From positions 32,781-96,780 of the forward strand of contig JAZQJZ010000007.1 of assembly GCA_045541915.1 (NCBI GenBank): DNA of 64,000 bases, in the 5' to 3' direction. The notes under the pieces were generated by a model. The model did no database searches. It was not told where the DNA came from and worked only from the letters and a program-made list of their open reading frames with translations. This DNA is from Eubacteriales bacterium (GTDB lineage: Bacteria > Bacillota > Clostridia > Oscillospirales > SIG627). The first letter of the stretch is position 1. Each line of letters opens with the position of its first letter. The translations under genes and the position numbers were made by a program. Positions 13,091 to 37,744 of the stretch are shown here, one piece after another.

Positions 13091-13241
13091 TTTGTGTTCT
13101 CCTTTTACTTTTTTCTGTTATTCTAACACAATCCACCGTCACATTCAATCTCCTTTTTCACAGAAAAACAGGATGTTTTCCCGAATCTTCACGATTCATA
13201 GGAAAAAAAGTTTGCAAAACATTTTATTTTTATTAAAATGC

Positions 13242-13270
13242 TTGACATATTTTTTCATTGGTGATATAAT
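13242..13270 (+). promoter_or_regulatory. Consensus sigma-A promoter for the sigma-factor gene
   Basis: TTGACA (13242-13247), 17-nt spacer, TATAAT (13265-13270). Confidence 0.6.
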
Positions 13271-13301
13271 TTATTTTAGGTAGTAATCGAAAGAGGTATC
13301 C

Positions 13302-13880
13302 ATGTCTAACAGCAAGGAAGTGCTTTCCCTTTCCAAGGATGAGAAGGAACTGGACACATGGGCAAAAGAGGCCGCCTCGGGAGGAGATCATTCCTTTTCC
13401 CGACTGGTGGAATATTTTACCCCAGTTCTGTTCTCTATGATCTCGCCCTTGGCAGTTCCGGAAACGGAAAAGGAAGATTTGATGCAGGAAGGTCTGATCG
13501 GTCTTTATAAAGCAGTCCGTTTGTTTGACCCAAGCCTCTCCTCCTTTGCCACCTTCGCCCGGATCTGTATGCGTTCTGCCCTATTGGACGGTGTGAAAAA
13601 ATACCAGAAAAGAGGCGCGGATCTGGATCTTGCAGACTGGGAGGAAACCATCCCCGCTTCCCTGACCGAGACCCCTGAAAGGATCTTTTTGGGTCGGGAA
13701 GAGCTGCAGGAACTGATGGAGCGAGTGGATCGAACTCTTTCCCCCATGGAGCGCCGTGTTTTCGGCCTAAGTCTTCAGGGCAAGGGTCCTTCCCGAATCG
13801 CAGCAGAATTGGGGCTGGGGCAAAAAAGCGTGGAAAACACGCTTTACCGGCTTCGCAAAAAGCTTTCGGCGCCGGTTTGA
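13302..13880 (+). CDS. RNA polymerase sigma factor, sigma-70 family (region 2 + region 4; SigH/ECF-like)
   Basis: Region 2 EDLMQEGLIGLYKAVRLFDP..SFATFARICMRSA, and region 4 LSPMERRVFGL...RIAAELGLGQKSVENTLYRLRKKL. Confidence 0.8.
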   Translation: MSNSKEVLSLSKDEKELDTWAKEAASGGDHSFSRLVEYFTPVLFSMISPLAVPETEKEDLMQEGLIGLYKAVRLFDPSLSSFATFARICMRSALLDGVKKYQKRGADLDLADWEETIPASLTETPERIFLGREELQELMERVDRTLSPMERRVFGLSLQGKGPSRIAAELGLGQKSVENTLYRLRKKLSAPV

Positions 13881-13994
13881 TTTTCGTTGATATGCCCGTG
13901 TAGCTTAAAGAGAGCGTTTTGATCGGCAACGATCTAAAAGGGTGACGGTGCGAGTCCGTTCTGGGCAATTTTAAAAAATTAAGAGGTATGGCAA

Positions 13995-14273
13995 ATGTAC
14001 GAAGACAAGACACTGGTATGCAAGGATTGTGGCAATGAATTCGTTTTCACCGCTGGTGAACAGGAATTCTACGCCGAGAAAGGTTTCCAGAACGAACCCC
14101 AGAGATGCAAGCCCTGCAGAGACGCGAAGAAGAATGCTTCCAGACAGGCAAGAGAGTATTTCACTACCACTTGCGCTAACTGCGGCAAGGAAGCAAAGGT
14201 TCCCTTCCAGCCCACCAGCGATCGCCCTGTTTATTGCAGCGATTGCTTCGCAGCAATGAAGGAGAACGCATAA
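13995..14273 (+). CDS. Zinc-ribbon domain protein (two CxxC...CxxC units)
   Basis: CKDCGNEF...CKPC and CANCGKEA...CSDC. 92 aa, with AAGAGG RBS. Confidence 0.75.
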   Translation: MYEDKTLVCKDCGNEFVFTAGEQEFYAEKGFQNEPQRCKPCRDAKKNASRQAREYFTTTCANCGKEAKVPFQPTSDRPVYCSDCFAAMKENA

Positions 14274-14283
14274 TTTTTCGTTC

Positions 14284-14317
14284 AAAAAAACAGTCACCGA
14301 AAGGTGGCTGTTTTTTT
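14284..14317. terminator. Bidirectional rho-independent terminator
   Basis: A7-CAGTCACC-GAAA-GGTGGCTG-T7, between convergent genes. Confidence 0.75.
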
Positions 14318-14326
14318 GTTTTCTCT

Positions 14327-14881
14327 TTAAAATGGAACAAGAACCGGACGAAAGGGCTGACTTTTTCTCAAGGCTGTGTGCTTGGCGGCATTTTTGGAAA
14401 CTGGATCCATCCGATATTTTTTTCTCGGCAAAGTCCCCTTCACAAGAAACCTGGCAGGCGGGATCCTTTTTTGCTTGGGGGAAACGGCACGCAGCTGCTT
14501 TTTTAATTCGCTTTTGGCTCTTTTTGCGTGACGGTACACCGTCCTTAAGCTAAAAAAACTCATCTCGGCAATTTCTTCATGGGTCAAGCCGTAAAGGTAG
14601 TGCAGTCGGGCAAAATCCCGGATTTCCTCCACGGAGATGAGCGAAATAGCCAGAGCAAGACGGGTAGCATACCGTTCACAAAGCCGCCGGTGACGGTTCA
14701 GCTTTTCCTTCAAGCTGTTCTCCCCCAAGGCGAAGGCGCGGAGCACCGGAGATGCACTTTCACCGAAATGATGCACAAAGGAGCGGTAGCTTTCGCTCTG
14801 CATCAGAGCAAGGCTTTTTTCGTCCTGCTCCACCGCCCTTTGAAGCAACCAATACCGGGAAATGTATTCATCAAAGGTCAA
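14327..14881 (-). CDS. Sigma-70 region-4-type HTH regulator (phage-type late-regulator-like)
   Basis: The only recognisable part is LHYLYGLTHEEIAEMSFFSLRTVYRHAKRAKSELKKQL, which is region 4-like. Basic C-terminal tail. ATGA overlap with the upstream small ORF. Confidence 0.55.
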   Translation of the reverse strand: MTFDEYISRYWLLQRAVEQDEKSLALMQSESYRSFVHHFGESASPVLRAFALGENSLKEKLNRHRRLCERYATRLALAISLISVEEIRDFARLHYLYGLTHEEIAEMSFFSLRTVYRHAKRAKSELKKQLRAVSPKQKRIPPARFLVKGTLPRKKYRMDPVSKNAAKHTALRKSQPFRPVLVPF

Positions 14882-15090
14882 GCGATGGATCCCCAGTCAT
14901 AATATTTTGCACTATCTGCCATGGCCATTTTTTCCGTGCGAACGGAGAGAAGCTCTTCCTGAAGATTCTCCCGAAACCAAGCCATTTCCTCCGCCGTATC
15001 CGAAAGCACTTCCTCCAAAGCCTCCGCCGCTTCCTCTACCTTTTCCAAGGCGAAGACTAGCGCTTCTTCTTTTTTCTGCAAGTATTTCAA
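14878..15090 (-). CDS. Small acidic hypothetical protein (probable coiled coil)
   Basis: TTG start with AAGGAGA 9 nt upstream. 70 aa, Glu/Ala/Leu-rich. First gene downstream of a perfect consensus promoter. Confidence 0.5.
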   Translation of the reverse strand: MKYLQKKEEALVFALEKVEEAAEALEEVLSDTAEEMAWFRENLQEELLSVRTEKMAMADSAKYYDWGSIA

Positions 15091-15132
15091 GTGTGATTTC
15101 TCCTTTTTCGTATTTTCTCATTGCTCGACTGG

Positions 15133-15161
15133 ATTATATCACGAAATTTCGTAATTGTCAA
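15133..15161 (-). promoter_or_regulatory. Perfect-consensus sigma-A promoter
   Basis: Minus strand reads TTGACA (15161-15156), 17-nt spacer, TATAAT (15138-15133). Confidence 0.65.
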
Positions 15162-15181
15162 TACAATTTACGTAATTTCGT
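15141..15181. promoter_or_regulatory. Two 12-bp operator-like sites
   Basis: ACGAAATTTCGT (15141-15152) is a perfect palindrome inside the promoter spacer. ACGTAATTTCGT (15170-15181) matches 11/12 and lies just upstream of the -35. Centres are 29 bp apart. Confidence 0.5.
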
Positions 15182-15248
15182 TCGCATTTTTACTTTTTAA
15201 TGTGCACGACAGGACGTACAGTTTTTTATGAATCTTTTTGAAATTCCC

Positions 15249-15277
15249 TTGCAAAACCCCCTTGTTTTTGGTAAAAT
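15249..15277 (+). promoter_or_regulatory. Putative promoter of the GT2-GtrA operon
   Basis: TTGCAA-17 nt-TAAAAT with a TGn extended -10. Confidence 0.5.
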
Positions 15278-15344
15278 ATCATCGGGTTTATTCGCGTTTG
15301 ACTTCACCTGACTGTTTCACCATTTTTTCATTGAGGAAAACACT

Positions 15345-16433
15345 ATGACCATCATCATTCCTGCCTACAAGCCGGATCAAAAACTGATTGATCTGTTGAA
15401 AAAATTGAAAGAATGCACCACCGCAAGACTTCTGGTTGTAAACGACGGCTCCGGAGAAGCGTATGAGGACATATTTCAAAGTGTCCGGGAGCTGGGGTGC
15501 ACCTTGCTTTGCCACCCTGTAAACAAGGGAAAGGGCGCTGCCTTAAAGACCGGTTTCCGGTTTCTTTTGGAGGAGGGCAAGGAAAAAGAGGCCATCTGCA
15601 CCGCCGATGCAGACGGTCAGCATTTGCCCGGCGATATTCTTCGCTGTATGGAAGAAGCAAAAGCCCATCCGGAGGCGCTGGTTTTGGGTTCCCGGATGTT
15701 CAAAGGGGACGTTCCTGCCAGAAGCCGGATCGGCAACGCCATTTCCCGGTTCACCTTTCACCTTTTAATGGGCACCAAAGTGTATGACACCCAGACAGGT
15801 CTGCGCGCCTTTTCCGCCGGTCTGCTGAACGAAATGCTATCCACCCCCGGCGATCGCTATGAATACGAAATGCAGGTGCTTTGCGATATGGCCAAACACA
15901 AGATCCCCATCCGGGAGGTGGAGATTGAAACTGTCTATTTAGAGGAAAATAAATCCTCACACTTCAATCCCTTGCGTGATGCGGTGAGAGTTTACGGGCT
16001 TCTGCTGAAAAACGCCCTGGGAAGAGCCTTTCAGCCTGTGATCTTTCTGCTCTCATCCTGCCTTGCCTTTTTCCTGGATGTCATTGTTTATTACCTTCTG
16101 TTCAACTTTGTTTTTTCCCATTTTATTCCCTCTCCGGAGGATCTTGCCTTTTGTTCTCTTTTGATTGCAAGAGCCATTTCCTCCGTGGTGAATTTTACCG
16201 TCAACGGAAAAATGGTCTTTCACAATTTAAAGCATCCGGCACGAAGCTTTGTTCTGTATGTGCTTCTGGTGGTGGGCATTTTCTTTGGCAATCATGTTCT
16301 CAACACCCTGTTTTTGGTGGATTTTGCACTTCATGAGATCCCCTCTTTGATCCTGGCGCAGTGCATTTGCTTCCCGGTGAGCTTTTTGATTCAAAAATAC
16401 ATTGTATTTCCCAAAACAAAGGAGACAAAATGA
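15345..16433 (+). CDS. Family-2 glycosyltransferase fused to a GtrA-like membrane domain
   Basis: IIIPAYKPD, VVNDGS and DADGQH (DxD) in the N-terminal half. Four hydrophobic helices in the C-terminal ~130 aa, typical of GtrA. Confidence 0.85.
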   Translation: MTIIIPAYKPDQKLIDLLKKLKECTTARLLVVNDGSGEAYEDIFQSVRELGCTLLCHPVNKGKGAALKTGFRFLLEEGKEKEAICTADADGQHLPGDILRCMEEAKAHPEALVLGSRMFKGDVPARSRIGNAISRFTFHLLMGTKVYDTQTGLRAFSAGLLNEMLSTPGDRYEYEMQVLCDMAKHKIPIREVEIETVYLEENKSSHFNPLRDAVRVYGLLLKNALGRAFQPVIFLLSSCLAFFLDVIVYYLLFNFVFSHFIPSPEDLAFCSLLIARAISSVVNFTVNGKMVFHNLKHPARSFVLYVLLVVGIFFGNHVLNTLFLVDFALHEIPSLILAQCICFPVSFLIQKYIVFPKTKETK

Positions 16434-17362
16434 GAAAAAAGCACCGCCTTTTTCTCCTGTTCTCTCTGGATCTGATCTGCCTTGGGGTGCTTCTTTGCAC
16501 CTTCGCCCTATTTCATCACGTTCTTCCCCGAAGCATCGGCAACCTTTATGGAGCCACCGCGGAGACAGAATTGCAGGATTGGGCAGAAAAATTCCCCGAT
16601 AAATTTACCACTGACGGCTCTGTGGTCAAGGGGGATGGATTTTATATGGATTCCCAGGTAAATGTCACCGTAACCACACACGTGGAAAATGGCGTTACCT
16701 ACTATGTGGCCGATCTTTACGTTCGATACATCACCTCCCTGAAAACTGCCATGGCAGGCGAGACCTTTTCCACCGGTATCTCGGATTCCACCCTGAATCT
16801 TTCCCGTGAAAACAACGCGCTTCTCGGTGTTTCCGGTGATTATTTCGGCATCCGTCAAAGAGGGATCGTCATTCGGAACGGCGAGGTTTACCGAACCTCA
16901 AAGGCCCACCAGATCTGCGTACTCTATTACAACGGAACCATGGAAACTTATTCCTTTTCCTCCTTTGATGTCAATCTTGCCATTGCCGGGGGTGCCTGGC
17001 AGGCCTGGGATTTCGGCCCTATGCTTCTGGACGAAAAGGGGCTGGCCATAGAGGAATTCAGCACCGGCATTTCCGGGGAAAACCCTCGGGTGGCTCTGGG
17101 TTATTACGAGCCGGGGCATTACTGCCTGGTGGCAGTGGACGGAAGACAAAGCCTCTCCCGGGGAATGACCCTGGCGGAATTGGCAAAGCTATTTGAATCT
17201 TTGGGTTGCCGGAGAGCCTATAACCTAGACGGCGGACATTCTGCCGTAATGACCTGGCAAGGAGAGATCTTTTCCTCTCCCAGTAAAAAAGGCGGCAGAG
17301 ACATCAGCGATATTCTCTACATCGCAAGTCCCACCTGGACCTATCAAGGAGAAGAAGAATGA
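16430..17362 (+). CDS. Phosphodiester glycosidase family protein (DUF2233/NAGPA-like), membrane-anchored
   Basis: Start at MRKKHRLF, overlapping the upstream stop (ATGA). N-terminal TM. The YNLDGGHSAVM motif is typical of the family. Confidence 0.7.
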   Translation: MRKKHRLFLLFSLDLICLGVLLCTFALFHHVLPRSIGNLYGATAETELQDWAEKFPDKFTTDGSVVKGDGFYMDSQVNVTVTTHVENGVTYYVADLYVRYITSLKTAMAGETFSTGISDSTLNLSRENNALLGVSGDYFGIRQRGIVIRNGEVYRTSKAHQICVLYYNGTMETYSFSSFDVNLAIAGGAWQAWDFGPMLLDEKGLAIEEFSTGISGENPRVALGYYEPGHYCLVAVDGRQSLSRGMTLAELAKLFESLGCRRAYNLDGGHSAVMTWQGEIFSSPSKKGGRDISDILYIASPTWTYQGEEE

Positions 17363-17568
17363 AAAAGTTCTTTTGTTTTTGCAAGCGACTGTTGCCCCAT
17401 ATCACCTTGATCTTAAGCCTTTCGCTTTTGACTTTTTTCGTCATTGATCTGTTTAACGAGTCTATGGCTTTTCTGAACAATGCCCTGACCAAAGGGATCC
17501 TCGCCGTGTGTGCCGGGCTCACCGTCCTTCTTTCAATCCTTTCTATTTTAGACAACGAAAGAAAATAA
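17359..17568 (+). CDS. Small two-TM membrane protein
   Basis: 69 aa with two hydrophobic segments. ATGA overlap with the upstream gene. Confidence 0.5.
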   Translation: MKKFFCFCKRLLPHITLILSLSLLTFFVIDLFNESMAFLNNALTKGILAVCAGLTVLLSILSILDNERK

Positions 17569-18528
17569 ATGTCCCAAAAGGGATCAGGAGATTTTATGTT
17601 TTTCGACCGTAATATGTTTAAAAAAGCGCTTTTTGTTCTTTGCCCCTTGGCGCTTTTAGCCTTTGTTTTCAGAATTTATACCTTCTGGACAGAAGTGGAA
17701 AACACCATGGGGTTTTTCCGGACAACGCCCTATGCCTGCTATCTTTTCAACGGCATCGGCTTTCTCGTTTTCGCTCTTTGCCTTCTTCTCTCATTCCGAA
17801 AGACCTTGTCGGCACAAAAAAGCAAAGCACCCTTGGAAAACAGTCCTTTTTTAGGTGAAGAATCCTTGCTTTCAGACGAAGCCGAATCTCCCAAAACAGA
17901 GCGTCAAAGCACTGCAGATTCCCTCTCACCCTTTGCAGCCAGAACCGCATCCTGGCAAGGCACTCTCTCTGCCTTTTCCACCTTCTTTCCCGGATTTAGC
18001 TTTTTGGCCTACTCCGTTTCCTGCCTTTTGGATCCGGCCCTAAAGCAAAACAGCTATGCCTGGATGTTCGCCCTTCTTTCTGCCCTGTCCGGCGTTTATT
18101 TTCTTGTGATCGGCTTCCAAAACTCCAGACAAAAAAATTCCACTCGCGCATTCTTCGCTTTGGTACCGGCCTTTTGGTGTACCGTCCGCATGGTGGTGGA
18201 ATACCGTGACCTGGCACGCTTTGTAAACAAGGCGCTTTACATCGGTCAGTTCCTTTTCATCATTTCCGCCCTTCTCTTTTTCCTCTATCAGGCACAGCTT
18301 CTGCTGGGGGAAAAAGCCATGACCCGTCCCAATTCTTACGCGTTTTCCGGACTGGCAGTGGTATTCTTCGGCATTACCGCAAGGCTCTCTTACCTGGTGG
18401 CAGTGGTGGGAGACCGGGTTTCTGCCGATCTGGTGGATATTTCCTCCCTTCTCATTGACCTTGCCATTACCTTGTATGTCATCGTGAAGATTTCTTCCGT
18501 TCTGGAGGAAGACTCTGATATTTTTTAG
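17569..18528 (+). CDS. Polytopic membrane protein, unknown function
   Basis: The start abuts the preceding stop. Multiple hydrophobic helices; no motif recognised. Confidence 0.55.
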   Translation: MSQKGSGDFMFFDRNMFKKALFVLCPLALLAFVFRIYTFWTEVENTMGFFRTTPYACYLFNGIGFLVFALCLLLSFRKTLSAQKSKAPLENSPFLGEESLLSDEAESPKTERQSTADSLSPFAARTASWQGTLSAFSTFFPGFSFLAYSVSCLLDPALKQNSYAWMFALLSALSGVYFLVIGFQNSRQKNSTRAFFALVPAFWCTVRMVVEYRDLARFVNKALYIGQFLFIISALLFFLYQAQLLLGEKAMTRPNSYAFSGLAVVFFGITARLSYLVAVVGDRVSADLVDISSLLIDLAITLYVIVKISSVLEEDSDIF

Positions 18529-18622
18529 AAATTGATGCTTTTTCCCCTTTACAACTTGGCAAATTTTGTAGTATAATAAGGCGGTTAAGCAAAAATAATA
18601 TAATGATAGGAGATGTCAAAAC

Positions 18623-19195
18623 ATGGAAAAGAAAGTTTTGGTTGAAACCTCGGCCCGTCATGTCCACTTGAGCCAGGAGCACATTGAAGCTCTCTTCGGA
18701 AAAGGATATGCCCTCACCCGCAAGAAGGATCTGTCCCAGCCCGGTCAGTTCGCTTGCGAAGAAAGAGTGGATATCACCGGTCCCAAAGGCACCATCAAGA
18801 ACGTTATTATTCTCGGACCTGCCCGTCCTGCATCTCAGGTGGAAGTTTCCGCTACCGATGCCAGAACCCTGGGCATTAAGGCTCCCATCCGCGAATCCGG
18901 CGACGTTGCCGGCTCCGGCGCTTGTACCATTTCCGTTGGCGACAAGTCTGTGGAAGTGGCAGAGGGCGTGATCGTGGCAAAGCGTCACATTCACTTTACT
19001 CCCGCTGATGCAGAAGCATTCGGCGTGAAGGACAAGCAGATTGTGAAAATTCGCGTAGAAGGCGAAAGATCCCTTATTTTCGATGAGGTTGTGGTCAGAG
19101 TCAGCGAAAAATTTGCTGCTGCCATGCACATCGACACCGACGAGTCTAACGCCGCCTGTGCCGCTCCCGGTACCATGGGCGTTCTGGTTGACTAA
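18623..19195 (+). CDS. pduL: Phosphate propanoyltransferase / PduL-type phosphotransacylase
   Basis: SARHVHLS and AKRHIHF duplicated His motifs, GPARP, HIDTDE. 190 aa. Confidence 0.9.
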   Translation: MEKKVLVETSARHVHLSQEHIEALFGKGYALTRKKDLSQPGQFACEERVDITGPKGTIKNVIILGPARPASQVEVSATDARTLGIKAPIRESGDVAGSGACTISVGDKSVEVAEGVIVAKRHIHFTPADAEAFGVKDKQIVKIRVEGERSLIFDEVVVRVSEKFAAAMHIDTDESNAACAAPGTMGVLVD

Positions 19196-25408: not shown

Positions 25409-28400
25409 TTATGCTTTCCACGGAGCGGAAAGACCTTCGATCTTTTCGCCGTTGTAAAGCTGGCAGGAGAAGTGGATCTTCTCGCCGGCAACGGACTGCA
25501 TCTCTTCCCAGGGAAGAATCTTTGCCAGAGGCATTTCCTTAATGAAGAAGTCAGGCGCACGATAAACAGTGCGATACACTTCCTCGCCCTTGGCGTCAGT
25601 GATGGTAACAAACACATCGGAAATGGGGAAGTTGGACTTGAGGGATGCCTCTTTCAGGTTCTTCTCTTGGGAGATTTCAACCTTGCCATCCTCCACTTCC
25701 TTGGTGCCGATCAATTCTGCAAAGGTAAAGGGAATGTAAAAGGTATCAAACAGCTGCTTGAAGGTATATTTCATATCCACCATACCCTGAGCGCAGTAGT
25801 GGGTTCCGTCAGGATGCTTGCGGATATTGTTGCCCACACCGGTGGAATAGCAAACCTGCTCGGTCATAAGCGTATAGCTCTTATCACCGTCAATGAAGCC
25901 GTTTTCATCGCGAACTACAGTAGGGTAAGCAGAGTTCATTCTCACGTGACCGGTGCTGACCACACCGTCAGCAGGAAGCATTGCCGCATAGGATTCGTAC
26001 ATCACCTGCTCGCCGTTATCTTTGCAGACAGACTTCTGGTTGTACTTTTCAGCATTGCGGAAGCTCTTGAACTCTTCGGGGTACTTATAAGGTCCAACCG
26101 GAAGGAAGCCCTGCGCCTTGCACATACCGAAGGTATAGCTGAAGTTTGCGGAATTGACCACACGGCTCCAGGAAATGCTGGCACCGCCGGAGCAGGCATT
26201 TCCGAAGATTCTTGCATTCTGGATACATTCGCTTGTGGCGTCCAGAACACCCGTTTCGGGATCGCAGATCTCTGCCATACGGTAAAGGTTACCGGATCCG
26301 CAGGTCACATAGGGAAGACCGCCGTGAACCATACCGGCTGGCATATGTCTTTCTTTTTTCTGACTTCCGATGGTATAGGTCACATTTTCGCTGAGCAGAT
26401 GGGGGAATTCACACTGGAGCTTCATATAATCCAAGCAGATCTGACGGAGACGGTATTCACGCATACCGGGCTTGGCCACGGGAATCTGCTTCAGCTGCTG
26501 TACCAGGCTCTTACCGGGAATGGTTGTGGAGGTGCCGCCCTTGCCGGGGAGAATGGCAACCTTAAATCCGCGGTAGCCCTTGAGGAGTTCACCATTGTAA
26601 AGCTGGAACTGCATATTCAAGGTATAGGGAGCCTCGAAGATCTCCAGTCTCTTCATATCTTCTCTGGGGAGCATATCGCCAAGTTTTGCCTTGTAGGTAG
26701 CAAAGGAGATGGAACGCCATACGCCCTCTGCCATCACCTTGCCGTGAACGTCGGTCACCTTGTAGAAGGCATCGGACAAGGGATAGTTGAAGCTAAATTC
26801 CACTTCATTCAATTCATCTGCGTTAAAGCACTTCTTGTTGGAGTTGGGAACGGCATAGGCCTGTTTCACCGGTGCCTGACCCAAGAATTCCTTGAAGGTG
26901 AAGGGCAGATAGTTGGTGTCATACAGTTTCTTAAAGGGGATCTTCACATCCACACAGCCCTCAACCACATAGTAGTCGCCGTTTTTCTGCTGTCTGACGT
27001 GGTACCAGTCAACGGTGATCATACCCTGATCGCTGAAGACTGCATAGCTCTTGTTGCCGTCAATGGTTCCGTCAGGATTGCGAACCACATGGGAAAGACC
27101 CGTTGCCATACGGATATGGCCGGGGCAGTTCAGACCGTCACCGGGCTGAAGCAGAGCGTAGGATTCAAACATCACCTGCTCGCCGTTTTCCTTACATACA
27201 GTCTTGGCTGTATACTTTTCCGGATTGTGGAAGCTTCTGATGTCCTTGCGATAGGTATAAGGGCCAACGGGAATGACGCCATTTGCCTGGGTCATTTCAT
27301 GGGTCCATCCAAGACGGACAGAGGTGATACATCTTGCCCAGGAGGTAGCACATCCGCCAGAGCAGGCATTACCGAAGATTCTCTTGTTTCTGCCAAACTC
27401 CTTCATATTCACAATACCGGTTTTGGGATCCATATGCTCGGCCCAACGGTAAAGGCTGCTGCCGCCTATATTTACATAAGGAATACCGGCGTGAACCTCG
27501 TCCTTTTTCAGACGAACCTTATAGTCCTGTCTTTCCACCCAGTATTCAAAGTCTTCCTCCAGCTTATAGGGGAAAGAAACCTGCAGACGCATAAAGTCTA
27601 CACACATTTTTCTCAACTGCTCGGGAGCCATTCCTTCTTTTGCAATGGGAATTGCTTTGAGCTTTTCATGGAGGGTCAGATCCTCGGGCTGCAATTCGCT
27701 GGCGATCTTACCGGGGATGAGCGTTCCCTTGAAGCCGGACCAGCCACTCTTGGTCACACCGTTGAGCAGACGGATCTTCAGTTCCAGGGTGCTTCTGCCG
27801 TTCTGGAACAGCTTCAGATCCTCCAACTTCAGAATATCCTTCAGTGCCAGAGCATACTTGTGATGGGTGGGGCAACGGTAAACATCCTCGTAAAGAAGGG
27901 TGCCGTCCCGATCCGTTACAGTGATGAATATATCGGAGAAGGGATAGTTTGCCTGAATCTCGATCTCTTTTAAGTGCTCGGTGGTGAAAATGGTGCGGAG
28001 AATGTTCTCGCCGGTGGCGATCTCCTTCATTCGGATCACAGGCTTTGCATAAGAAGCCTCACCGGTGAATTCCTTGAAGGTAAAGGGAATATAGTGCTTT
28101 TCGAACAAGGTTTTAAAGTCTACCTTGATGTCAATGCCACCCTGAACATAAACGGGCGTTCCGTCTGCCTGGAGGGTATCGGTGTGATAGAGGTATTCCT
28201 TTTCGCCGTTTTCCTTTTCCTTCACCTCGGTCTGGTATGGCGTTGCCACCTGATCCATATACAGGATATAGCTCTTTTCGCCGTCAATTTCGCCATTTTC
28301 ATCCCGTTCCACATGAACCTGGGAAACCATTCTCACGTGGCCGCGGCTATGAACACCGTCAGCAGGCTTCAAAGCGGCGAAGGATTCGTACATCACATCT

Positions 28401-28978
28401 CTTCCCATTTCGTTTCCGATGTTATGGGAGGTATAATCATACTTTCTTTCCGGATCTTCCGCCAAGGTGTAAGGCGCCTTGATAAACAAAGGAAGCTCCT
28501 TCATATAGGTATAAGGACCAACATTCTGATAGCCCATCAACTGGGTCATGCCGGAGGTGTAGGTCATCTTGGCAGAAGAGACGCATCTTGCCCAAGCAAT
28601 GCAAGCTGCACCGGAGCAAGCGTTACCGAAAATCTGGGGATTTTCCTTCAGCTTGGAAATATCAAGAACACCGGTTTCTTCATCGTAATATTCCATTGCG
28701 CGATAAAGGTTTCCGGAGCCCAGATTCACATAGGGAAGACCGGCATAAACCGTATCGGTGGAAAGCTTCACCGGGCGCTTTGCGCTCTTGATGGTATATT
28801 CAAAATCTTCACTGGGAACCCAGCGGAAGGAAAGCTGCGCTCTCATAAAATCAAGACAAATCTGACGCATTTCCTCCGGGGTAGAGGAAGCCTTAGCGGT
28901 GGGAAGTGCCTTCAGCTTTTCCTGGCTAAAGGGATCCTGAACTGCGGGATACTGTTTTTTCGTTGTGGTATTCGCCAT
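25409..28978 (-). CDS. Tri-modular 1189-aa protein; each module has an NlpC/P60-like Cys/His signature (function unknown)
   Basis: Three homologous modules at aa ~20-425, ~438-815 and ~827-1189. Each repeats IFGNACSG (C121/C539/C929) and LxPxDG..GH(V/I)RM (H214/H621/H1011). AAAGGAG RBS. No signal peptide or TM. Confidence 0.85.
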   Translation of the reverse strand: MANTTTKKQYPAVQDPFSQEKLKALPTAKASSTPEEMRQICLDFMRAQLSFRWVPSEDFEYTIKSAKRPVKLSTDTVYAGLPYVNLGSGNLYRAMEYYDEETGVLDISKLKENPQIFGNACSGAACIAWARCVSSAKMTYTSGMTQLMGYQNVGPYTYMKELPLFIKAPYTLAEDPERKYDYTSHNIGNEMGRDVMYESFAALKPADGVHSRGHVRMVSQVHVERDENGEIDGEKSYILYMDQVATPYQTEVKEKENGEKEYLYHTDTLQADGTPVYVQGGIDIKVDFKTLFEKHYIPFTFKEFTGEASYAKPVIRMKEIATGENILRTIFTTEHLKEIEIQANYPFSDIFITVTDRDGTLLYEDVYRCPTHHKYALALKDILKLEDLKLFQNGRSTLELKIRLLNGVTKSGWSGFKGTLIPGKIASELQPEDLTLHEKLKAIPIAKEGMAPEQLRKMCVDFMRLQVSFPYKLEEDFEYWVERQDYKVRLKKDEVHAGIPYVNIGGSSLYRWAEHMDPKTGIVNMKEFGRNKRIFGNACSGGCATSWARCITSVRLGWTHEMTQANGVIPVGPYTYRKDIRSFHNPEKYTAKTVCKENGEQVMFESYALLQPGDGLNCPGHIRMATGLSHVVRNPDGTIDGNKSYAVFSDQGMITVDWYHVRQQKNGDYYVVEGCVDVKIPFKKLYDTNYLPFTFKEFLGQAPVKQAYAVPNSNKKCFNADELNEVEFSFNYPLSDAFYKVTDVHGKVMAEGVWRSISFATYKAKLGDMLPREDMKRLEIFEAPYTLNMQFQLYNGELLKGYRGFKVAILPGKGGTSTTIPGKSLVQQLKQIPVAKPGMREYRLRQICLDYMKLQCEFPHLLSENVTYTIGSQKKERHMPAGMVHGGLPYVTCGSGNLYRMAEICDPETGVLDATSECIQNARIFGNACSGGASISWSRVVNSANFSYTFGMCKAQGFLPVGPYKYPEEFKSFRNAEKYNQKSVCKDNGEQVMYESYAAMLPADGVVSTGHVRMNSAYPTVVRDENGFIDGDKSYTLMTEQVCYSTGVGNNIRKHPDGTHYCAQGMVDMKYTFKQLFDTFYIPFTFAELIGTKEVEDGKVEISQEKNLKEASLKSNFPISDVFVTITDAKGEEVYRTVYRAPDFFIKEMPLAKILPWEEMQSVAGEKIHFSCQLYNGEKIEGLSAPWKA

Positions 28979-29184: not shown

Positions 29185-29973
29185 TTATTTTTTAATGTTT
29201 CTTCGAAGGATCTCTCTGCCCCGCCAGGAAAACGCCCGGGTAAGAAATTTCTCCTTGGGACTTTCGATCACATCCTCCGTCAGCTCCGAAATATGATCCT
29301 CCTGAAAAAAGGAAATGGGAGTTTTTTCCGGCGTGGCATTCATCGGACAAGCGCTCTGGCACAGATCACATCCCCATTTGCACTTTGCTTGAGAAAGCAG
29401 CCTTTCCTCCTTTTCGCTTCGAATCTTCTTTTGAGAGATCAAGGAAAGACACTCTTTTCGTTCCGGATCCAAAATGGCGCCGGTGGGACAGGCAGTGCGA
29501 CAAAGGGAGCAACCGCGACAGTGCTGGATCTCTTTTGGTTTTTGAGGGGAAATGGCCTTGGTCAGAAAAAATTCACCGATAAAAAAATAGGAGCCATACC
29601 GGGAATTTAAGACCAGTCCGTTTTCTCCCAGAACGCCAAGTCCGGCACGAAGCGCCGCTTCCCGTTCCCGGATGGGAGAGGAATCGGTAAAGCCGCAAAA
29701 GGCGATAGGACTTTTCTTCTCCTCCAGATATTCTCCCAGGCGCTGGGAAAGAAGACGCAAATACAAATGGTAGTCCCGTGGCTGCGCGTAAATGGAAAGA
29801 TTGGTGGTTTTTTGCCCGGAAAAATATGGGATCAGAAACAAAACGGCACTTTCCACCTTGCCGATCTTCTGCTCCATTTTTTGAAATTTTGTTTCATCCC
29901 AGATAGAAAGATCCTCTATGGCAAGCTCTCCATAACAAAAGATCCCCTGGGATTCCAAAAATGAACCGATCAT
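29185..29973 (-). CDS. Epoxyqueuosine reductase (QueG)-like 4Fe-4S protein
   Basis: DSSPIREREAALRAGLGVLGENGLVLNSRYGSYFFIGEF, plus two ferredoxin motifs CRGCSLCRTACP and CKWGCDLCQSACP. Shorter than canonical QueG. Start chosen at MIGSF (GGAGG RBS). Confidence 0.65.
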   Translation of the reverse strand: MIGSFLESQGIFCYGELAIEDLSIWDETKFQKMEQKIGKVESAVLFLIPYFSGQKTTNLSIYAQPRDYHLYLRLLSQRLGEYLEEKKSPIAFCGFTDSSPIREREAALRAGLGVLGENGLVLNSRYGSYFFIGEFFLTKAISPQKPKEIQHCRGCSLCRTACPTGAILDPERKECLSLISQKKIRSEKEERLLSQAKCKWGCDLCQSACPMNATPEKTPISFFQEDHISELTEDVIESPKEKFLTRAFSWRGREILRRNIKK

Positions 29974-30022
29974 CTTGTATTCCTCCCCAAAACAGTGTAG
30001 CAAAGGGAAGGAGAGAAGTCAA

Positions 30023-31393
30023 TTATTTTTTGAAAAAGCGAAGATAACTGTCATCCCTCTTTTCTTTTCCGAAAAATTCGGCGCGGAGATCCCGTTCCTT
30101 TTTCTTTGGAATCTTTTCTTCTCCCGGCAAAAACGGAAGGGAGGACAGGGCGTATCGCAGAGCGTCCGGCGCGTGGGTATATTCATGGGGAGTCAGAGCG
30201 GCATCCTCGGTTTTGATGGGATCAAAGGTCAGGCGTGGAAGGGTTCGAAGAAGGTTTTTACACTGGGGAAAGATCCCCAAAAACGCCTTCTCTTCCCGTT
30301 CGGCACGCAAAAATTCTCTCATTCTCCGCCAACCGGGGATTCTGGCATTGTCTGCCGGAACCAGGCCCCGAACGCCCCCTTTTTTTAAGATATCAAAGCC
30401 GCTTTTTCCCCCATCCTGGCGGCGTCCGGCAAGGTCAGGAGAAGCGGTAATATAGCGCACCTCTTCCCCGGCGATGGTCTCTCGGATCTTTTCCGCCGCC
30501 TCCGACAGCACCAGATCCGGCTCATACAGCTCCCGATACACCACAACACAGCTTCGATCCGGAGGATAAGCCAAAAGCAAAAATGCGGTCATATCCAAAC
30601 CGTAATCCAGCGCGCCGAAGCGGATCCAGTTCTCTGGCACGGAAAAGGGGCTGATCTCGTGCTTTCTTCGGTCAAATTCCGTGAAATACTGTCCCTCAAA
30701 GGCATCCCAGTCGCCGTCCAGCATGGCCCGACGGCGAAGGGGAGGCAGACTTTCCAGGGTTCGTACATATTCTGGGTTTTCCTTCAGCAAATAGCGGTTG
30801 TCATACACCGTGGAGGGAATGAAAATATAATCCTCCGCCTTTTCCCCCTCCCGGTATTCCCGATCGATAAAAAGCCGTTTTACCCAGGCATGTCCCACAC
30901 CGCCCGGGTTGCAGGTAAAATACATCCGCGGAACAAAGGGCTCCTGTAACAGTCCGGCCAAACGACAGCATTCAGTCATGGCATAGTACTGACTTTCCGT
31001 AAACTGGGTGGCCTCCTCCATTCCGATCACCTCGTACGCCTGTCCCTGATACTGGAGCGCATCCCCCTCCTCGCTCAAATATCCCAATTTGATCCGAGAT
31101 CCGCCCGGAAACAAAAATTCCTTGGTGGAATCCTTATAGGAAGCGATCCCATAAAGCCATCTTCGAAGCGGATTGATGTGGTTTTCACGTAATTCGGGGA
31201 AGGTGCGGCGCAGCAGCAGGATCTGGATCCCCGGATAGCGCAGGGCAAGCAGCACAAGCTTTGCACGCATGGCAAAGCTCTTTCCCCCTCCTCTGGCGCC
31301 GCCATAGGCAATGCGTCTGGCCCCGGCTCGAAAAAAGGCCTCCTGGGGCGGAAAGGGATGAAGTGTAGATAAAAATTTTTCAATTGCATTCAT
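30023..31393 (-). CDS. Phage terminase large subunit (orphan)
   Basis: Walker A GGARGGGKS, Walker B-like YEVIGMEEA, FTCNPGGVGHAWV, and nuclease-domain GALDYG...HAPDALRY. Start chosen at MNAIEKF (31393). No SD is visible. Confidence 0.8.
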   Translation of the reverse strand: MNAIEKFLSTLHPFPPQEAFFRAGARRIAYGGARGGGKSFAMRAKLVLLALRYPGIQILLLRRTFPELRENHINPLRRWLYGIASYKDSTKEFLFPGGSRIKLGYLSEEGDALQYQGQAYEVIGMEEATQFTESQYYAMTECCRLAGLLQEPFVPRMYFTCNPGGVGHAWVKRLFIDREYREGEKAEDYIFIPSTVYDNRYLLKENPEYVRTLESLPPLRRRAMLDGDWDAFEGQYFTEFDRRKHEISPFSVPENWIRFGALDYGLDMTAFLLLAYPPDRSCVVVYRELYEPDLVLSEAAEKIRETIAGEEVRYITASPDLAGRRQDGGKSGFDILKKGGVRGLVPADNARIPGWRRMREFLRAEREEKAFLGIFPQCKNLLRTLPRLTFDPIKTEDAALTPHEYTHAPDALRYALSSLPFLPGEEKIPKKKERDLRAEFFGKEKRDDSYLRFFKK

Positions 31394-31399
31394 TTTTAC

Positions 31400-31428
31400 T
31401 TGACAAATCGCGAAAAAAAGAATAAGAT
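31400..31428 (+). promoter_or_regulatory. Promoter of the TPP-riboswitch/thiT operon
   Basis: TTGACA (31400-31405)-17 nt-TAAGAT (31423-31428). The -35 lies 7 nt from the terL start codon on the other strand. Confidence 0.55.
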
Positions 31429-31444
31429 AATGGCACGCACAAGA

Positions 31445-31532
31445 GCGGAAAACAGGGGTGCTACGGCTGAGACGCATGAAAATGCGAACCCTTTAACCTG
31501 AGATGGATAATACCGGCGTAGGGAGTTTTTGA
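31445..31532 (+). promoter_or_regulatory. TPP (THI-box) riboswitch aptamer
   Basis: AGGGGUGC..GCUGAGA..ACCCUUUAACCUGAGAUGGAUAAUACCGGCGUAGGGAG matches the THI-element core. P1 pairs AAAAC with GUUUU. Confidence 0.9.
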
Positions 31533-31550
31533 GAGAACCAGATTCGAGTT

Positions 31551-31583
31551 CGCACAGGGCTTCCGTCCTGTGCGATTTTTATT
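31551..31583 (+). terminator. Riboswitch expression-platform terminator
   Basis: CGCACAGG-GCTTCCGT-CCTGTGCG followed by ATTTTTATTT, 18 nt before the AAGGAG RBS of thiT. Confidence 0.75.
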
Positions 31584-31600
31584 TGCAAGGAGTGTTTTTT

Positions 31601-32257
31601 ATGTCACAAAACAAAACAAAAAAGCTGGTCACCTCTGCTATGCTCATTGCCTTGGGAACTGCCGTTTCTCTGGTTTCCGAATGGATCCCCTTTCTCAATC
31701 TTCCCTTTGGCGGCACCATCACCCTGGCAAGCCTTCTTCCTCTGGTTCTGATCTCCTATCTTTACGGAATCCGCTGGGGCCTGGGCGCAGGCTTTGTGTT
31801 CTCACTGCTTCAAATGGCAGTGGGATTTAAGACCGTTTCCGGTCTGTTTCTTCCCAATTCCGATTCTTATATGGGATCGGTGGGAATCGCCTTTGCCATT
31901 TTGCTTTTGGATTACGTTCTGTCCTTCACCTCCGTGGGCCTGGGAGGGCTGTTCCGAAACAAGCTCAACCAAAAATGGGCCCTTGTTTGGGGAAGCGTGC
32001 TGGCGCTGTTCCTTTGCTATTTCTTCCACGTGCTTTCCGGCGCCATTTTCTACGGCGCCTGGGCAGAGTGGTTCTTTTTGGAAAGCGCCGCCAAGGATCT
32101 TGCCATTTCCTCCTTCATTATGGAGACCTTTACCGGCCACGGACTTTCCATTGCCTACTCCGTTGTGTATAACGGACTTTATATGTTTCCGGAAATGCTC
32201 ATCACCGCAGTGGCTGCCGGCGCCATTTCCCGCATCCCTACTTTGAAAAAAATTTGA
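31601..32257 (+). CDS. thiT: Thiamine transporter ThiT/YuaJ (ECF S-component type)
   Basis: I moved the start to MSQNKTKK, downstream of the riboswitch terminator. LPFGGTITLASLLPLVL and six hydrophobic helices. Confidence 0.8.
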   Translation: MSQNKTKKLVTSAMLIALGTAVSLVSEWIPFLNLPFGGTITLASLLPLVLISYLYGIRWGLGAGFVFSLLQMAVGFKTVSGLFLPNSDSYMGSVGIAFAILLLDYVLSFTSVGLGGLFRNKLNQKWALVWGSVLALFLCYFFHVLSGAIFYGAWAEWFFLESAAKDLAISSFIMETFTGHGLSIAYSVVYNGLYMFPEMLITAVAAGAISRIPTLKKI

Positions 32258-32270
32258 AAGGTAGCACTTT

Positions 32271-32879
32271 ATGACTCCCATCTGTCGCATCGTCGGCGCA
32301 GGCGATTTTTCTCCCTCCCTACTTCCCGAATCAAGGCCGGGGGATTTTCTCATCGCCGCAGACGCCGGATTTTCCCGTCTGCACTCTGCCGGTATCCAGC
32401 CGGATCTTTACATCGGTGACGGTGACTCCTTGGGCTACACGCCCCAGGGGGTCGGCGCCGTGGTTCTCCCCAAGGTCAAAGATGATACGGATACCCTGGC
32501 CGCGATCAAAGAGGGGCTTTCCCGAGGCTTTTTGCGGTTTGAGCTGTACGGTGCGCTGGGTGGAGACCGTTTCTCCCATTCCATTGCCAACCTGCAAACC
32601 CTTTTCTATTTGGCAAACCACGGGGCAACAGGGACCATTGTGGATTCCAAATGCACTGTGTCCCTTCTGACACCCGGAACCTATACCCTGGATCTTTCCG
32701 GAGGGTATTTTTCCCTTTTTGCTTTGGATTTGCCGGGTACCGTTTCCATTGAAAATGCCAAATACCCACTGAAAAGTACCACCATTTCCCCTTATTTTCC
32801 CATCGGCGTGAGCAACGAGGGAGAAAAGGAAACCTGTATCACGGTGGAAAAAGGAAATCTCTTTTTGATCCGGGAGTGA
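32271..32879 (+). CDS. thiN: Thiamine pyrophosphokinase
   Basis: IVGAGDF, IAADAG, YIGDGDS, KDDTDT, GALGGDRFSH, plus a C-terminal B1-binding-like half. Confidence 0.85.
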   Translation: MTPICRIVGAGDFSPSLLPESRPGDFLIAADAGFSRLHSAGIQPDLYIGDGDSLGYTPQGVGAVVLPKVKDDTDTLAAIKEGLSRGFLRFELYGALGGDRFSHSIANLQTLFYLANHGATGTIVDSKCTVSLLTPGTYTLDLSGGYFSLFALDLPGTVSIENAKYPLKSTTISPYFPIGVSNEGEKETCITVEKGNLFLIRE

Positions 32880-33275
32880 TCATTCCGCCCAGACCGAGCA
32901 AACGCCCAAATTCAAGGGAGCCTCTTCCTTTTGACCTCCCTCTCCCCAGCGCTGGAAATTCACCGATAAAAACAGCTTGGCGCCGGCGGCGGTATCCTTA
33001 TAAAAAAGCTTTTCCTCTGCATTTTCTTCTACTCGCAAAAGCGCTCGGTCCACGAGCGCTTTTATTTTTTTATCCTTGATCTCTCCCAATTCCTCCCGAC
33101 TTCTCAAGCCCAAGGCGAGGGCAATCCCGGTGACCGTACAAGGTCTCTCCTCAAACAGGATCTCTCCGGTTTTGGCGATGACAAAATTTCCCTCCTGATC
33201 CCGTTTTTCCACCCTTCTGGATCGAAAATACTCACAAAGCAGCCTTCTTGCCTTCTCTTCTGTCATTCTTTTCAC
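32880..33275 (-). CDS. Phage terminase small subunit (P22 gp3-like DNA-packaging protein), orphan
   Basis: LLCEYF...PCTVTGIALALGL...LVDRALLRVEENAEEKLF...GAKLFL parallels P22 gp3 landmarks (CCEYF, MTITGLTLF, RAEQVIYDQKF) as I recall them. GTG 33275 has GGAGG 8 nt upstream. The track start at 33308 lies inside the putative -10. Confidence 0.7.
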   Translation of the reverse strand: MKRMTEEKARRLLCEYFRSRRVEKRDQEGNFVIAKTGEILFEERPCTVTGIALALGLRSREELGEIKDKKIKALVDRALLRVEENAEEKLFYKDTAAGAKLFLSVNFQRWGEGGQKEEAPLNLGVCSVWAE

Positions 33276-33298
33276 GATTTTTTCCTCCTTTTTTTCGG

Positions 33299-33328
33299 AT
33301 CTTACCACAATTTGTCACTGCCAGGCAA
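33299..33328 (-). promoter_or_regulatory. Putative promoter of terS
   Basis: Minus strand reads TTGCCT-18 nt-TAAGAT with a TGn extended -10. Confidence 0.45.
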
Positions 33329-33338
33329 TGCCAATACC

Positions 33339-36367: not shown

Positions 36368-37744
36368 TTATTTTCGCCAAATCATTGTATTTTTTTGGAA
36401 TAATATTCGAGGAAAAACGGTTAAAATGAAAAAAGATAAAAAGAAAAAAACAACAAGAATGGAAAGAACCAAAAGCCACGTTTGCCACCTGTTTTCCGAA
36501 GTATTTTCTTTCCTCGGCGCCAAGGAGGTGCTCGTCGGTGCCGGGTTCATAACCTCCATCTCTTCCCTTTCCTCCGGAACAAGATGAGGGGATGAGAGAA
36601 TAGGCAAAGAGGCAAATGCCGAAACACTTCCCCTTGCCGGATCCAGGCAAATTTCTTCCGGCAACGCTTCATACACCGGGATCAAAAAAGTAAGTTTTCC
36701 ATTCAGCTGACCCGTTTCCTCGTAAATTTGGTAAAGCAGATCGGCTTCGGTTTTGGCGGCACCGATGTTTTGCATATACTGCCCCCAGAAATTCCGGATT
36801 TGCCCCTCCGGGGTGAGAGAGCGGATATCCACATTCCACTTTTGCAGATAAAGGGTATTCTGATGGGTAGACACATACTCCCGCGCAATTTTTTCTGTGC
36901 CTCCCCAAAGACCCTTTTCCAGTGTATTCCAACCGGAGAGCCTTGCCTTCTCCGCACCGCTTCGATAAACCTCAAAGGCTCCGTTGCCGGAAGCAGATAC
37001 ATTGAACGGATTGTAGTATCCGTTTAGGGAAAGAAGCTCTTTTGCATCACAGCCGCCTTTTGGGGAAAGCACCGAGCGATCCCCCTCCCACTGGGTTCCT
37101 TCTTGATACCATTGGGAAAGAACCTCTCCTGCCAAACCGGAAAGCAGCACGTTTCCCTCTCTCCCTTGCTCCTGGCGCAAGCGCACTGCCAAAAAACGGG
37201 GATCGATTCCAAATTCCTCCCCCAAGAAAAGAAGTGTTTGGGAAGAGACCTCCCCTTCCAAGGCAGTTTGGGAAAGAATTTTATCAAGAACCTCCGGGGG
37301 AATGGGAGTGGTGTATGACAGATCCAAAAATTGAAACACGCCACTTTCCGAAAGATGAGACCGGGGATCCAAAAAATAGGCCACCGCTTCTCTGGATGCC
37401 CGATGATATCCGGTATCGCTTGTTTCTCCGCCGGGGTCCCAATAGGCGCTATAATCACCGTCACCGGAAACCAGACTCTGCTGAGCAGAGTCCGTTTCCC
37501 GATCCAAAACGTATCCGAAGGTATATTCCTGTCCCTTCTCCCGGGAAAGCTCGGTGATCTTCAGCGCCCTCCATTCCCATTCCGGATGCATCAAGCTCAA
37601 GGCGCAAAGCGGCTCCCAATAGGATTGGCAAAATCCCTTTTCCTGCAAGGACAAGCAAATCTCACAGTTTGTTTGGGCCTCTACGGGAAAAAGCAGTAAC
37701 AAGCTCCCCATCAGAATCCCAAAGCACAGTTTTATCATTCTCAT
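36368..37744 (-). CDS. Exported, C-terminally membrane-anchored protein with GH73-like glucosaminidase signature
   Basis: Signal peptide MRMIKLCFGILMGSLLLLFPVEA. HQNTLYLQKWNVD resembles the QNTLYKMRWN motif of N-acetylglucosaminidases. C-terminal TM. Confidence 0.5.
   Translation of the reverse strand: MRMIKLCFGILMGSLLLLFPVEAQTNCEICLSLQEKGFCQSYWEPLCALSLMHPEWEWRALKITELSREKGQEYTFGYVLDRETDSAQQSLVSGDGDYSAYWDPGGETSDTGYHRASREAVAYFLDPRSHLSESGVFQFLDLSYTTPIPPEVLDKILSQTALEGEVSSQTLLFLGEEFGIDPRFLAVRLRQEQGREGNVLLSGLAGEVLSQWYQEGTQWEGDRSVLSPKGGCDAKELLSLNGYYNPFNVSASGNGAFEVYRSGAEKARLSGWNTLEKGLWGGTEKIAREYVSTHQNTLYLQKWNVDIRSLTPEGQIRNFWGQYMQNIGAAKTEADLLYQIYEETGQLNGKLTFLIPVYEALPEEICLDPARGSVSAFASLPILSSPHLVPEEREEMEVMNPAPTSTSLAPRKENTSENRWQTWLLVLSILVVFFFLSFFILTVFPRILFQKNTMIWRK

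Follow-up and report, generated by a model that had tools for sequence, protein, structure and literature searches.

The locus described here raises the question of why two phage packaging genes should lie intact in a bacterial chromosome, far from any visible phage head or tail gene. In a 64,000-nucleotide stretch of contig JAZQJZ010000007.1 (assembly GCA_045541915.1, Eubacteriales bacterium), called the window below, a small terminase gene (terS) and a large terminase gene (terL) stand on either side of a thiamine operon encoded on the opposite strand. An earlier note, made from the sequence alone, had described the pair as intact orphans and suggested domestication, or a packaging function of the kind served by a gene transfer agent (GTA) or a phage-inducible chromosomal island (PICI). 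We consider it fairly probable, at roughly 0.6, that terS and terL supply the DNA packaging of a domesticated phage element, GTA-like and dispersed, which is chromosomally fixed and vertically inherited in an uncultured gut lineage of Clostridia.

Both reading frames were confirmed to be open and intact (Table 1). The NCBI call for terL is longer (484 residues, to position 31477), and the orthologues have 455-456 residues. The profile searches proposed in the earlier note back the assignment of terL, with matches to Terminase_3 and Terminase_6N of Pfam (E ~1e-11) and to two PHROG terL families (E 1e-45 and 1e-38). For terS the assignment is backed by PHROG 606 (E 3e-8), and the match to GP3_package (PF16677), at 24.7-24.9 bits, stays under the gathering score of 29.4. 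This model was matched by all members of the terS family that were tested (17/17; best E 2e-8). The Walker A sequence of TerL, GGARGGGKS at residues 31-39, and its nuclease motifs are retained, as had been noticed earlier. Among 40 homologues the invariant ATPase residues are G31-S39 (with K38), R62/R63, E126/E127 and the coupling motif T160-N162, and those of the nuclease domain are D263, D320, H407 and R413; D410 is conserved, not fully invariant.

A search of the PDB sequences with the single TerL sequence gave no match. The family profile did, however, align end to end with the TerL of phage D6E (E 1.7e-6); the ATPase motifs line up with D6E TerL, and the D263 and D410 motifs pair with DYG and DADRY of D6E. 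TerL D320 pairs with VIVDPS of D6E only after manual realignment, HMMER having placed D327 there. An AlphaFold2 model of TerL (mean predicted local distance difference test score, pLDDT, 85.7) has as its best fold matches, over ~440 columns, D6E TerL (E 1e-21), Sf6 gp2 and T4 gp17. By this model TerL is a two-domain terminase fold, and its conserved residues indicate that it keeps the complete architecture of a packaging terminase. D6E (PDB 5OE8/5OE9/5OEA) is the best match by both profile and fold and over both domains, yet it is a complete 49-kb phage with a TerL only ~20% identical. The TerS monomer model (pLDDT 80) has P22 gp3 (3P9A) as its top PDB match, which is insignificant (E 0.46, TM 0.40-0.45), and the TerS sequence profile found no match among PDB sequences.

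How widely the pair is kept, and in what company, was examined in a scan that took one genome per species and returned 38 loci. The closest of the thousands of TerL homologues in the databases are encoded on long bacterial contigs, their identity falling by degrees from 87% to 57%. In 35 of the 38 species-level loci terS and terL have no portal gene with them; two host contexts are conserved among these loci, and a few more occur. Class A, to which the window conforms, comprises ~17 species (TerL 75-87% identical to that of the window) with the order hrcA / p458 / carD / spoVFB / spoVFA / membrane protein / terS / thi insert / terL / queG-like. Class B comprises ~14 species (62-68%) with the order PGI / adjacent terS-terL / large serine recombinase / 136-residue protein / prmA / rsmE. 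The two genes are adjacent in other host contexts at loci L023, L028, L034 and L037 (68-69%), and at L020 and L021 (68-71%) a divergent thiT lies between them, with a thiamine pyrophosphate (TPP) riboswitch confirmed in L020. Only L004 (57%) has a contiguous series of terS, terL, portal, scaffold and capsid genes that continues to a holin.

In a neighbour-joining tree the chromosomal TerL proteins form one clade with L004 at its base. The sister clade consists of IMG/VR viral contigs of 33-41 kb, with TerL at most 58% identical and the usual terL-portal-scaffold-capsid order; in cultured phages the identity is at most ~36%. The best match in the phage database, MT836592 (50% TerL identity), was set aside, being a 9.6-kb faecal virome scaffold, an unverified linear fragment that offers nothing decisive. 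Selection was estimated on 11 neighbourhood genes in 16 class A genomes, with synonymous divergence (dS) saturated. Among these 11, terL has both the lowest nonsynonymous divergence (dN; median 0.166) and the lowest dN/dS (~0.09), and terS, at ~0.18, is close to hrcA (0.16) and spoVFB (0.18). These ratios indicate that terS and terL are under purifying selection, which speaks for domestication and not for prophage decay. The earlier argument from open reading frames to selection is borne out by these values, the intact motifs and the conserved synteny.

In what sense, then, is the pair orphaned? Within the window the description holds: tblastn and phmmer searches with L004, L014 and L043 proteins found no portal, capsid or tail homologue in the 64 kb, and the neighbours are, as had been noted, a queG-like gene, a membrane protein gene and spoVF. 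It does not hold for relatives that share the synteny of the window, which carry a portal-capsid cluster without terminase genes and with the same promoter box as terS. The proposed search for capsid and portal genes lacking terminases was thus positive in close relatives. The head cluster encodes a portal (~523 residues), a scaffold-like protein of ~148 residues, a capsid protein (278 residues), p127, p569 and p248, and is flanked by host genes, rnhA-mnmA in L043, L046-48 and L049. In L085 a seven-gene variant is found in another host context (PGK/TIM upstream). The PHROG labels are portal and major head protein, with p569 labelled "virion structural protein". No Pfam or NCBIfam match was found for p569, p248, p127 or the scaffold-like protein, which have weak PHROG matches and an insignificant PDB match to tail tubular protein B. 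In the closest pair of genomes (L043/L046) the six head genes have dN/dS values of 0.04-0.12, similar to rnhA and mnmA, and by this measure all six are under purifying selection.

The two loci were seen in the same genome in two relatives. Contig JAZLXM010000010 (154 kb), with a TerL 79% identical to that of the window, has the order dus / dnaJ / dnaK / grpE / hrcA / p447 / carD / spoVFB / spoVFA / membrane protein / terS / thiT / terL / queG-like, and its portal gene starts 64 kb beyond terL. In L014 (JAZODR; class A) genes for the scaffold-like protein, capsid, p127, p567 and p244 lie about 4 kb upstream of terS, so that both loci fall within 8 kb. For the 278-residue capsid protein of L014 (PF25209), too, homologues of stepwise decreasing identity occur on long bacterial contigs; its closest match in a cultured phage is the D6E capsid (~40% identity). 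In L004 and L041 the terminase pair is contiguous with head genes, the order in L041 (Congzhengia) including p624-p248-terS-terL. The L004 genome is that of Clostridiales bacterium GWF2_38_85, where a ~9-kb cluster (9613-18762) holds terS, terL, portal, scaffold, capsid, four further genes of no assigned function and a holin gene, with no integrase within 10 kb and no copy upstream of terS of the promoter box described below; the element may be less rearranged there.

The two loci are also tied by this promoter box. It was exposed by aligning the regions upstream of terS, and its family consensus is TTGTCATTGnnTGTCA, with half-sites in the direct repeat TGTCA-N5-TGTCA. The promoter geometry, TGTCATTGnnTGTCA, 14 nt and TAnAAT, is common to the terS and portal promoters of relatives, the portal promoters being those of L043, L046, L049 and L085. 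The 1.18 Mb of loci contain 34 matches with at most one mismatch, and 31 of these stand before terS or portal, ~45-60 nt upstream by the coordinates as read. They span class A, class B, L023 and L028, and most other terS loci match with two mismatches. The scan read the terS promoter of L009 as TTGCCT-18-TATAAT. An exact scan of public metagenomes for the box with its -10 hexamer gave 74 loci. On at least 20 phage-like contigs among these the box follows directly on the stop codon of a ~140-residue gene (gap -28 to +6 nt), a representative of which has DUF1492 and sigma-70 region 4 signatures, and in the metagenome contigs the box precedes terS-like, HNH or scaffold genes. The genes for activators of the Ltr superfamily (RinA, ArpU, LtrA with sigma70_r4, LtrB with DUF1492) lie immediately before terS; the proteins recognise direct repeats beyond the stop codon of the activator gene, and no other factor is needed to transcribe the late operon (NAR 2013;41:7260, PMC3753634). 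Because the metagenome layout of activator gene, box and terS-like gene is this published architecture, the box is read as a putative Ltr-type site. Sigma-54 promoters, Pho boxes and Spo0A boxes were considered as other readings and dropped, as none agrees with the box in spacing or half-site.

The window itself encodes a candidate activator of this type. It scores 27.6 bits against Sigma70_r4_2 (gathering score 25.7), it is matched by a hidden Markov model built from 20 box-ending activators (E 9e-5), and hhalign aligns it with these activators at 96% probability (E 3e-9). Its putative recognition helix, which we read from the alignment as SLRTVYRHAKRA, resembles the helices of the box-associated activators, and an orthologue lies in collinear host synteny in L008. 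Like the Ltr activators of phages, it is a small protein with a sigma-region-4-like C-terminus, and the direct repeats stand just upstream of a terS late promoter. It differs from them in a basic C-terminal extension of ~55 residues, and the repeats differ in being duplicated to a second locus, that of the portal. On the 41-kb viral contig L053, by comparison, an Ltr-like gene is followed by TGTCGG, 5 nt and TGTCGG (3508-3600), and the recognition helix differs too, which fits co-variation of activator and repeat. Beside the Ltr-like gene there is a gene for a 92-residue CxxC zinc-ribbon protein (13995-14273, plus strand, in the window; 20085-20357 in L008). The two copies are 100% identical over 91 aligned residues, whereas the neighbouring proteins are 50-98% identical. 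A 192-residue sigma-70-family gene (13302-13880) lies next to the zinc-ribbon gene.

Taken together, the genes share several features with GTAs: they are phage-derived, chromosomally fixed, vertically inherited and under purifying selection, and in class A no replication, lysogeny or integration gene was found within ±10 kb of either locus. Of the two packaging functions suggested earlier, the GTA-like one is the best reading; the PICI-like one is disfavoured, since neither an integrase nor a replication gene was found and the chromosomal position does not shift between species. Class B is an exception with its conserved large serine recombinase beside terL. This recombinase (445 residues, XisF/Ccr-like; 11549-13399 in L002) and the 136-residue protein, which has no family match, always lie between terL and prmA-rsmE in class B, the same pair in the same position being found in L022, L024-L027, L029-L031, L033, L035, L036 and L039; both diverge about as fast as their host neighbours.

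A regulon of at least three loci is proposed, namely the Ltr-like gene, terS/terL and the head cluster. In the mechanism that we infer, an activator of the Ltr type, for which the protein encoded at 14327-14881 is the candidate, would bind the TGTCA-N5-TGTCA box 14 nt upstream of the -10 hexamer. With the box before both terS and the portal gene of the six-gene head locus, both loci would be switched on together. Procapsids would then assemble, and TerS and TerL would cut DNA and pump it in, so that particles carrying DNA would form; terL would most likely owe its transcription to the terS promoter, by read-through that runs antisense across the thi genes.

Several observations weigh against this proposal. 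The head locus lies outside the window, all 64 kb of which was searched. However, a head cluster at a distance like that in JAZLXM would be missed because only ~30 kb lies on that side of terL, and the genome of the window presumably carries one. Class A has no clear tail or lysis genes, a holin being found only in L004, and p569 and p248 are weakly annotated. The candidate activator lies 15 kb from terS among host genes, unlike phage ltr genes, which are adjacent to terS and end at the repeats; its orthologue was found in only one other genome, the flanks examined in relatives being short. It is equally conceivable that an infecting phage brings the Ltr protein that reads the box. Finally, terL has no recognisable promoter or strong ribosome-binding site, and the spacer between thiT and terL contains neither a sigma-70-like site nor a box.

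The possibility of an outside activator leads to another explanation, in which a helper phage is needed to run a capsid system, satellite-like or defence-like, that the genes encode at fixed chromosomal positions. The terminase and head genes would be silent until a related phage supplied the Ltr activator, and perhaps tails; host DNA would then be taken up by the host-encoded capsids, or these would vie with the phage for its components, in the manner of capsid-forming PICIs. That the same box stands directly downstream of ltr genes in many phage-like contigs, that heads and packaging are encoded without obvious tail or lysis genes, and that related phages of 33-41 kb exist would all agree with such a system. 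Against it, integrase, replication and att features are all missing, the genes keep their place in the chromosome, and, divided among two or three unlinked loci, they cannot be mobilised together. Moreover, an Ltr-like gene belongs to the host's own complement and lies in conserved host synteny, PADLOC found no match to an anti-phage defence system, and the closest viral relatives (L052, L053 and L070) have divergent recognition helices, L053 at least with a different repeat (TGTCGG). We regard dependence on a helper as unlikely, though it deserves some weight.

A job other than packaging is very unlikely. TerS and TerL would in that case have been co-opted, for example as a DNA translocase or nuclease in sporulation or chromosome processing, and the head cluster would be an unrelated remnant. 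The pair does persist without adjacent head genes in ~35 species, next to spoVFAB in class A and to a large serine recombinase in class B, yet these neighbours differ between the classes, which leaves no host partner in common. The head cluster, for its part, is equally conserved, has the same promoter box and is contiguous with terS-terL in basal lineages, and TerL has kept the whole architecture of a packaging enzyme. Least credible of all, to the point of being almost negligible, is an ordinary prophage remnant that is still open by chance. The genes are indeed of phage origin and there are no structural genes nearby in the window, but a dN/dS of ~0.09 for terL with dS saturated across 16 species, and 156 of 456 TerL residues invariant in 35 genomes, argue against decay. 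The window has a host-like GC content and a uniform base composition, and the conserved host synteny excludes recent horizontal copies.

With the GTA-like reading preferred, the element can be set beside known systems, of which FpGTA of Faecalibacterium prausnitzii is the closest. FpGTA is encoded at two loci and forms podovirus-like particles of ~40 nm that carry 8.4-8.9 kb of random host DNA; GTA-like packaging was also reported in Oscillospiraceae and Christensenellaceae with no gene clusters found (Nat Commun 2026;17:2046, PMC12946183). Abundant GTA-like carriage of chromosomal DNA in gut Oscillospirales and Christensenellales is described in a second particle-sequencing study as well, again with no gene clusters found (bioRxiv 2026.07.08.737213). 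Both FpGTA and the element described here are domesticated head-and-packaging sets, podovirus-like or tail-less, which occur in gut Oscillospirales, are split over loci and are nearly ubiquitous in their lineage, with a gene series of TerS, TerL, portal, scaffold, capsid protein and a few proteins of no assigned function. In FpGTA, however, terS-terL is contiguous with portal and capsid genes in the 10.5-kb operon I, and the capsid is annotated as N4-gp56 family with a Prp protease adjacent. Here the 278-residue capsid is PF25209 or P22-coat-like with no N4-gp56 or NCBIfam match, and the ~149-residue protein between portal and capsid has no Prp or Pfam match. Judging from annotation names, the element is analogous to FpGTA but probably belongs to a separate family of its own.

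RcGTA and other alphaproteobacterial GTAs have dispersed loci, a sigma-like activator (GafA), vertical inheritance, purifying selection and no replication or integration genes. The element resembles them in its dispersed loci and its candidate dedicated sigma-like activator. RcGTA has a siphovirus-type tail and keeps terS and terL together in the main head-tail cluster, and both its phage ancestry and its host phylum are unrelated to those of the element. Capsid-forming PICIs have their own terS, terL, portal and capsid genes and no tails, and each moves as one uninterrupted island that includes integrase, replication genes and att sites; the element, in contrast, is unlinked, fixed in position in at least 35 species, vertically inherited and without an integrase in class A. 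PBSX of Bacillus subtilis is a defective phage of a Firmicute that packages host DNA, a contiguous element of ~28 kb with a contractile tail, and the TerL of the window gives a sub-threshold match to the PBSX-family terminase model.

The family suggests why GTA genes may have been missed. A packaging locus of two genes, a head locus of six and a lone regulator, all among housekeeping genes, would be too small for prophage or GTA finders. A small scattered system of this kind could explain GTA-like DNA carriage in gut families in which no gene clusters were found, and the shared promoter box could serve as a handle with which to search genomes for all parts of the system.

Table 1. Positions of the genes and signals discussed, counted from the first nucleotide of the window
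Feature	Position	Strand	Remarks
Ltr-like late-activator candidate	14327-14881	-	184 aa; sigma-70 region 4 / DUF1492-like
Terminator past queG-like gene	29180-29163	-	predicted hairpin
queG-like Fe-S protein	29185-30003	-	272 aa; directly downstream of terL throughout class A
Putative queG-like gene promoter	30022-29994	-	sigma-70-like, extended -10, conserved; overlaps terL stop
terL, large terminase	30023-31393	-	456 aa; ATPase and nuclease domains, full length
Predicted thiT promoter TTGACA-17-TAAGAT	31400-31428	+	conserved in aligned class A orthologues
TPP riboswitch aptamer	31444-31541	+	Rfam RF00059, 60.1 bits (gathering score 54.3)
Riboswitch expression platform	31550-31585	+	terminator (attenuator) hairpin 31550-31575, then T-run; conserved in orthologues
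thiT, thiamine energy-coupling factor (ECF) S-component	31601-32257	+	Pfam Thia_YuaJ, E 1e-21
thiN, thiamine pyrophosphokinase	32271-32879	+	Pfam TPK_catalytic and TPK_B1_binding
terS, small terminase	32880-33275	-	131 aa; GTG start
thi operon intrinsic terminator (predicted)	33037-33073	+	11-bp stem and T-run, antisense within terS coding sequence
terS Shine-Dalgarno GGAGG	33284-33288	-	8 nt upstream of GTG; AAAGGAG in orthologues
-10 hexamer TAAGAT	33299-33304	-	14 nt downstream of box
Direct-repeat box TTGGCATTGCCTGGCA	33319-33334	-	putative Ltr-type activator site at terS promoter; only match in window

The thi unit that splits the pair has all the parts described in the earlier note, from promoter to thiN, on the plus strand. 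TPP riboswitches are also found in six orthologous loci (L005, L009, L013, L017, L020 and L095). The junctions are as tight as had been reported. The -35 of the thiT promoter sits 6 nt from the terL start codon, and the sequence bears out that the thiN stop (32877-32879) touches the terS stop (32880-32882). The claim that the thi operon has no terminator, on the other hand, has to be given up. A strong hairpin with a T-run lies inside terS, laid out as A-tract, GC-stem and T-run roughly 190 nt beyond thiN, and 14 of the 15 class A loci have an equivalent hairpin at a distance of ~182-198 nt from thiN. No hairpin was found at those terS codons in class B or in the other loci without a thi insert. 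This distribution indicates that the terminator evolved inside terS. The thi transcript, ending there, would overlap the 3' third of the gene. The hairpin occupies the codons AAA GCG CTC GTG GAC CGA GCG CTT TTG (33037-33063), encoding KALVDRALL. In the terS sense it is followed by only four U residues and might partly attenuate terS-terL transcription too.

The synteny comparison proposed earlier shows how the split arose. In class B, L004, L023, L028, L034, L037 and L041 terS is directly upstream of terL, overlapping or abutting it, and in class A the two are split. Because the outgroups all keep the genes adjacent, adjacency is taken as ancestral, and the comparison indicates that the thi unit is a derived insertion between once-adjacent genes, one that predates the split of L020 from class A. 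In every case the unit runs on the strand opposite to terS and terL. Its content varies: in L018 (9281-9889) the insert holds thiN only, with no thiT and no riboswitch, and in L013 and L095 it holds only riboswitch and thiT; terS and terL are intact in all three. As an evolutionary example, this would be a terminase pair that was split by a host operon and long retained, with a terminator written into coding sequence.

How terL is expressed across such an insert is a question of its own. The absence of a promoter or Shine-Dalgarno sequence for terL, noted earlier, stands, its ribosome-binding site being weak or absent. The Shine-Dalgarno sequence of terS is good, as had been said, and its plausible promoter is better described as the conserved direct-repeat box. 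A conserved TGTCAA upstream of the terL ATG, the sole TGTCA in the spacer, is the reverse of the thiT -35. terL would most simply be co-expressed if transcription from the terS promoter ran on through thiN, thiT and the riboswitch in antisense. This idea gains indirect support because the box is found only at terS, because no terminator is predicted on the minus strand from terS to the hairpin at 29180-29163, and because of the orientation of the insert, the one in which the thi terminators cannot stop a terS-to-terL transcript. The excludon-like arrangement proposed in the earlier note, with antisense read-through across the thi insert, is therefore plausible. It might even link a riboswitch-controlled operon to particle production: in a quite unlikely extension of the proposal, the element would be a three-locus GTA under a domesticated Ltr activator, with terL made solely by the antisense read-through and vitamin B1 status deciding whether DNA is packaged. 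Under thiamine shortage, transcription of the thi genes towards terS would run into the terS-to-terL transcript, or pair with it, and TerL would be blocked; only cells replete in thiamine would fill their capsids, and the extent of overlap between the transcripts would be marked by the terminator within terS.

The remaining neighbours are host genes: the queG-like gene on one side of the pair, and a membrane protein gene, spoVFA/B, a carD-like gene and hrcA-grpE-dnaK-dnaJ on the other. The earlier description of the terminases as wired into host operons was overstated, the queG-like gene having a conserved promoter of its own. Its product matches the QueG models of Pfam and NCBIfam below their cut-offs, aligning with positions 83-298 of the 337 in the QueG model at 137 bits against a cut-off of 200, and may be a truncated or diverged epoxyqueuosine reductase. 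Adjoining the queG-like gene is the gene for a 1189-residue protein (25409-28978, minus strand) that consists of three ~390-residue repeats. It has no Pfam match above threshold, and L001/L007 are the only loci in which it is conserved (59% identity). A 458-residue protein (36368-37744, minus strand), secreted or membrane-anchored, is encoded between the carD-like gene and hrcA; it has no Pfam match and is conserved in class A.

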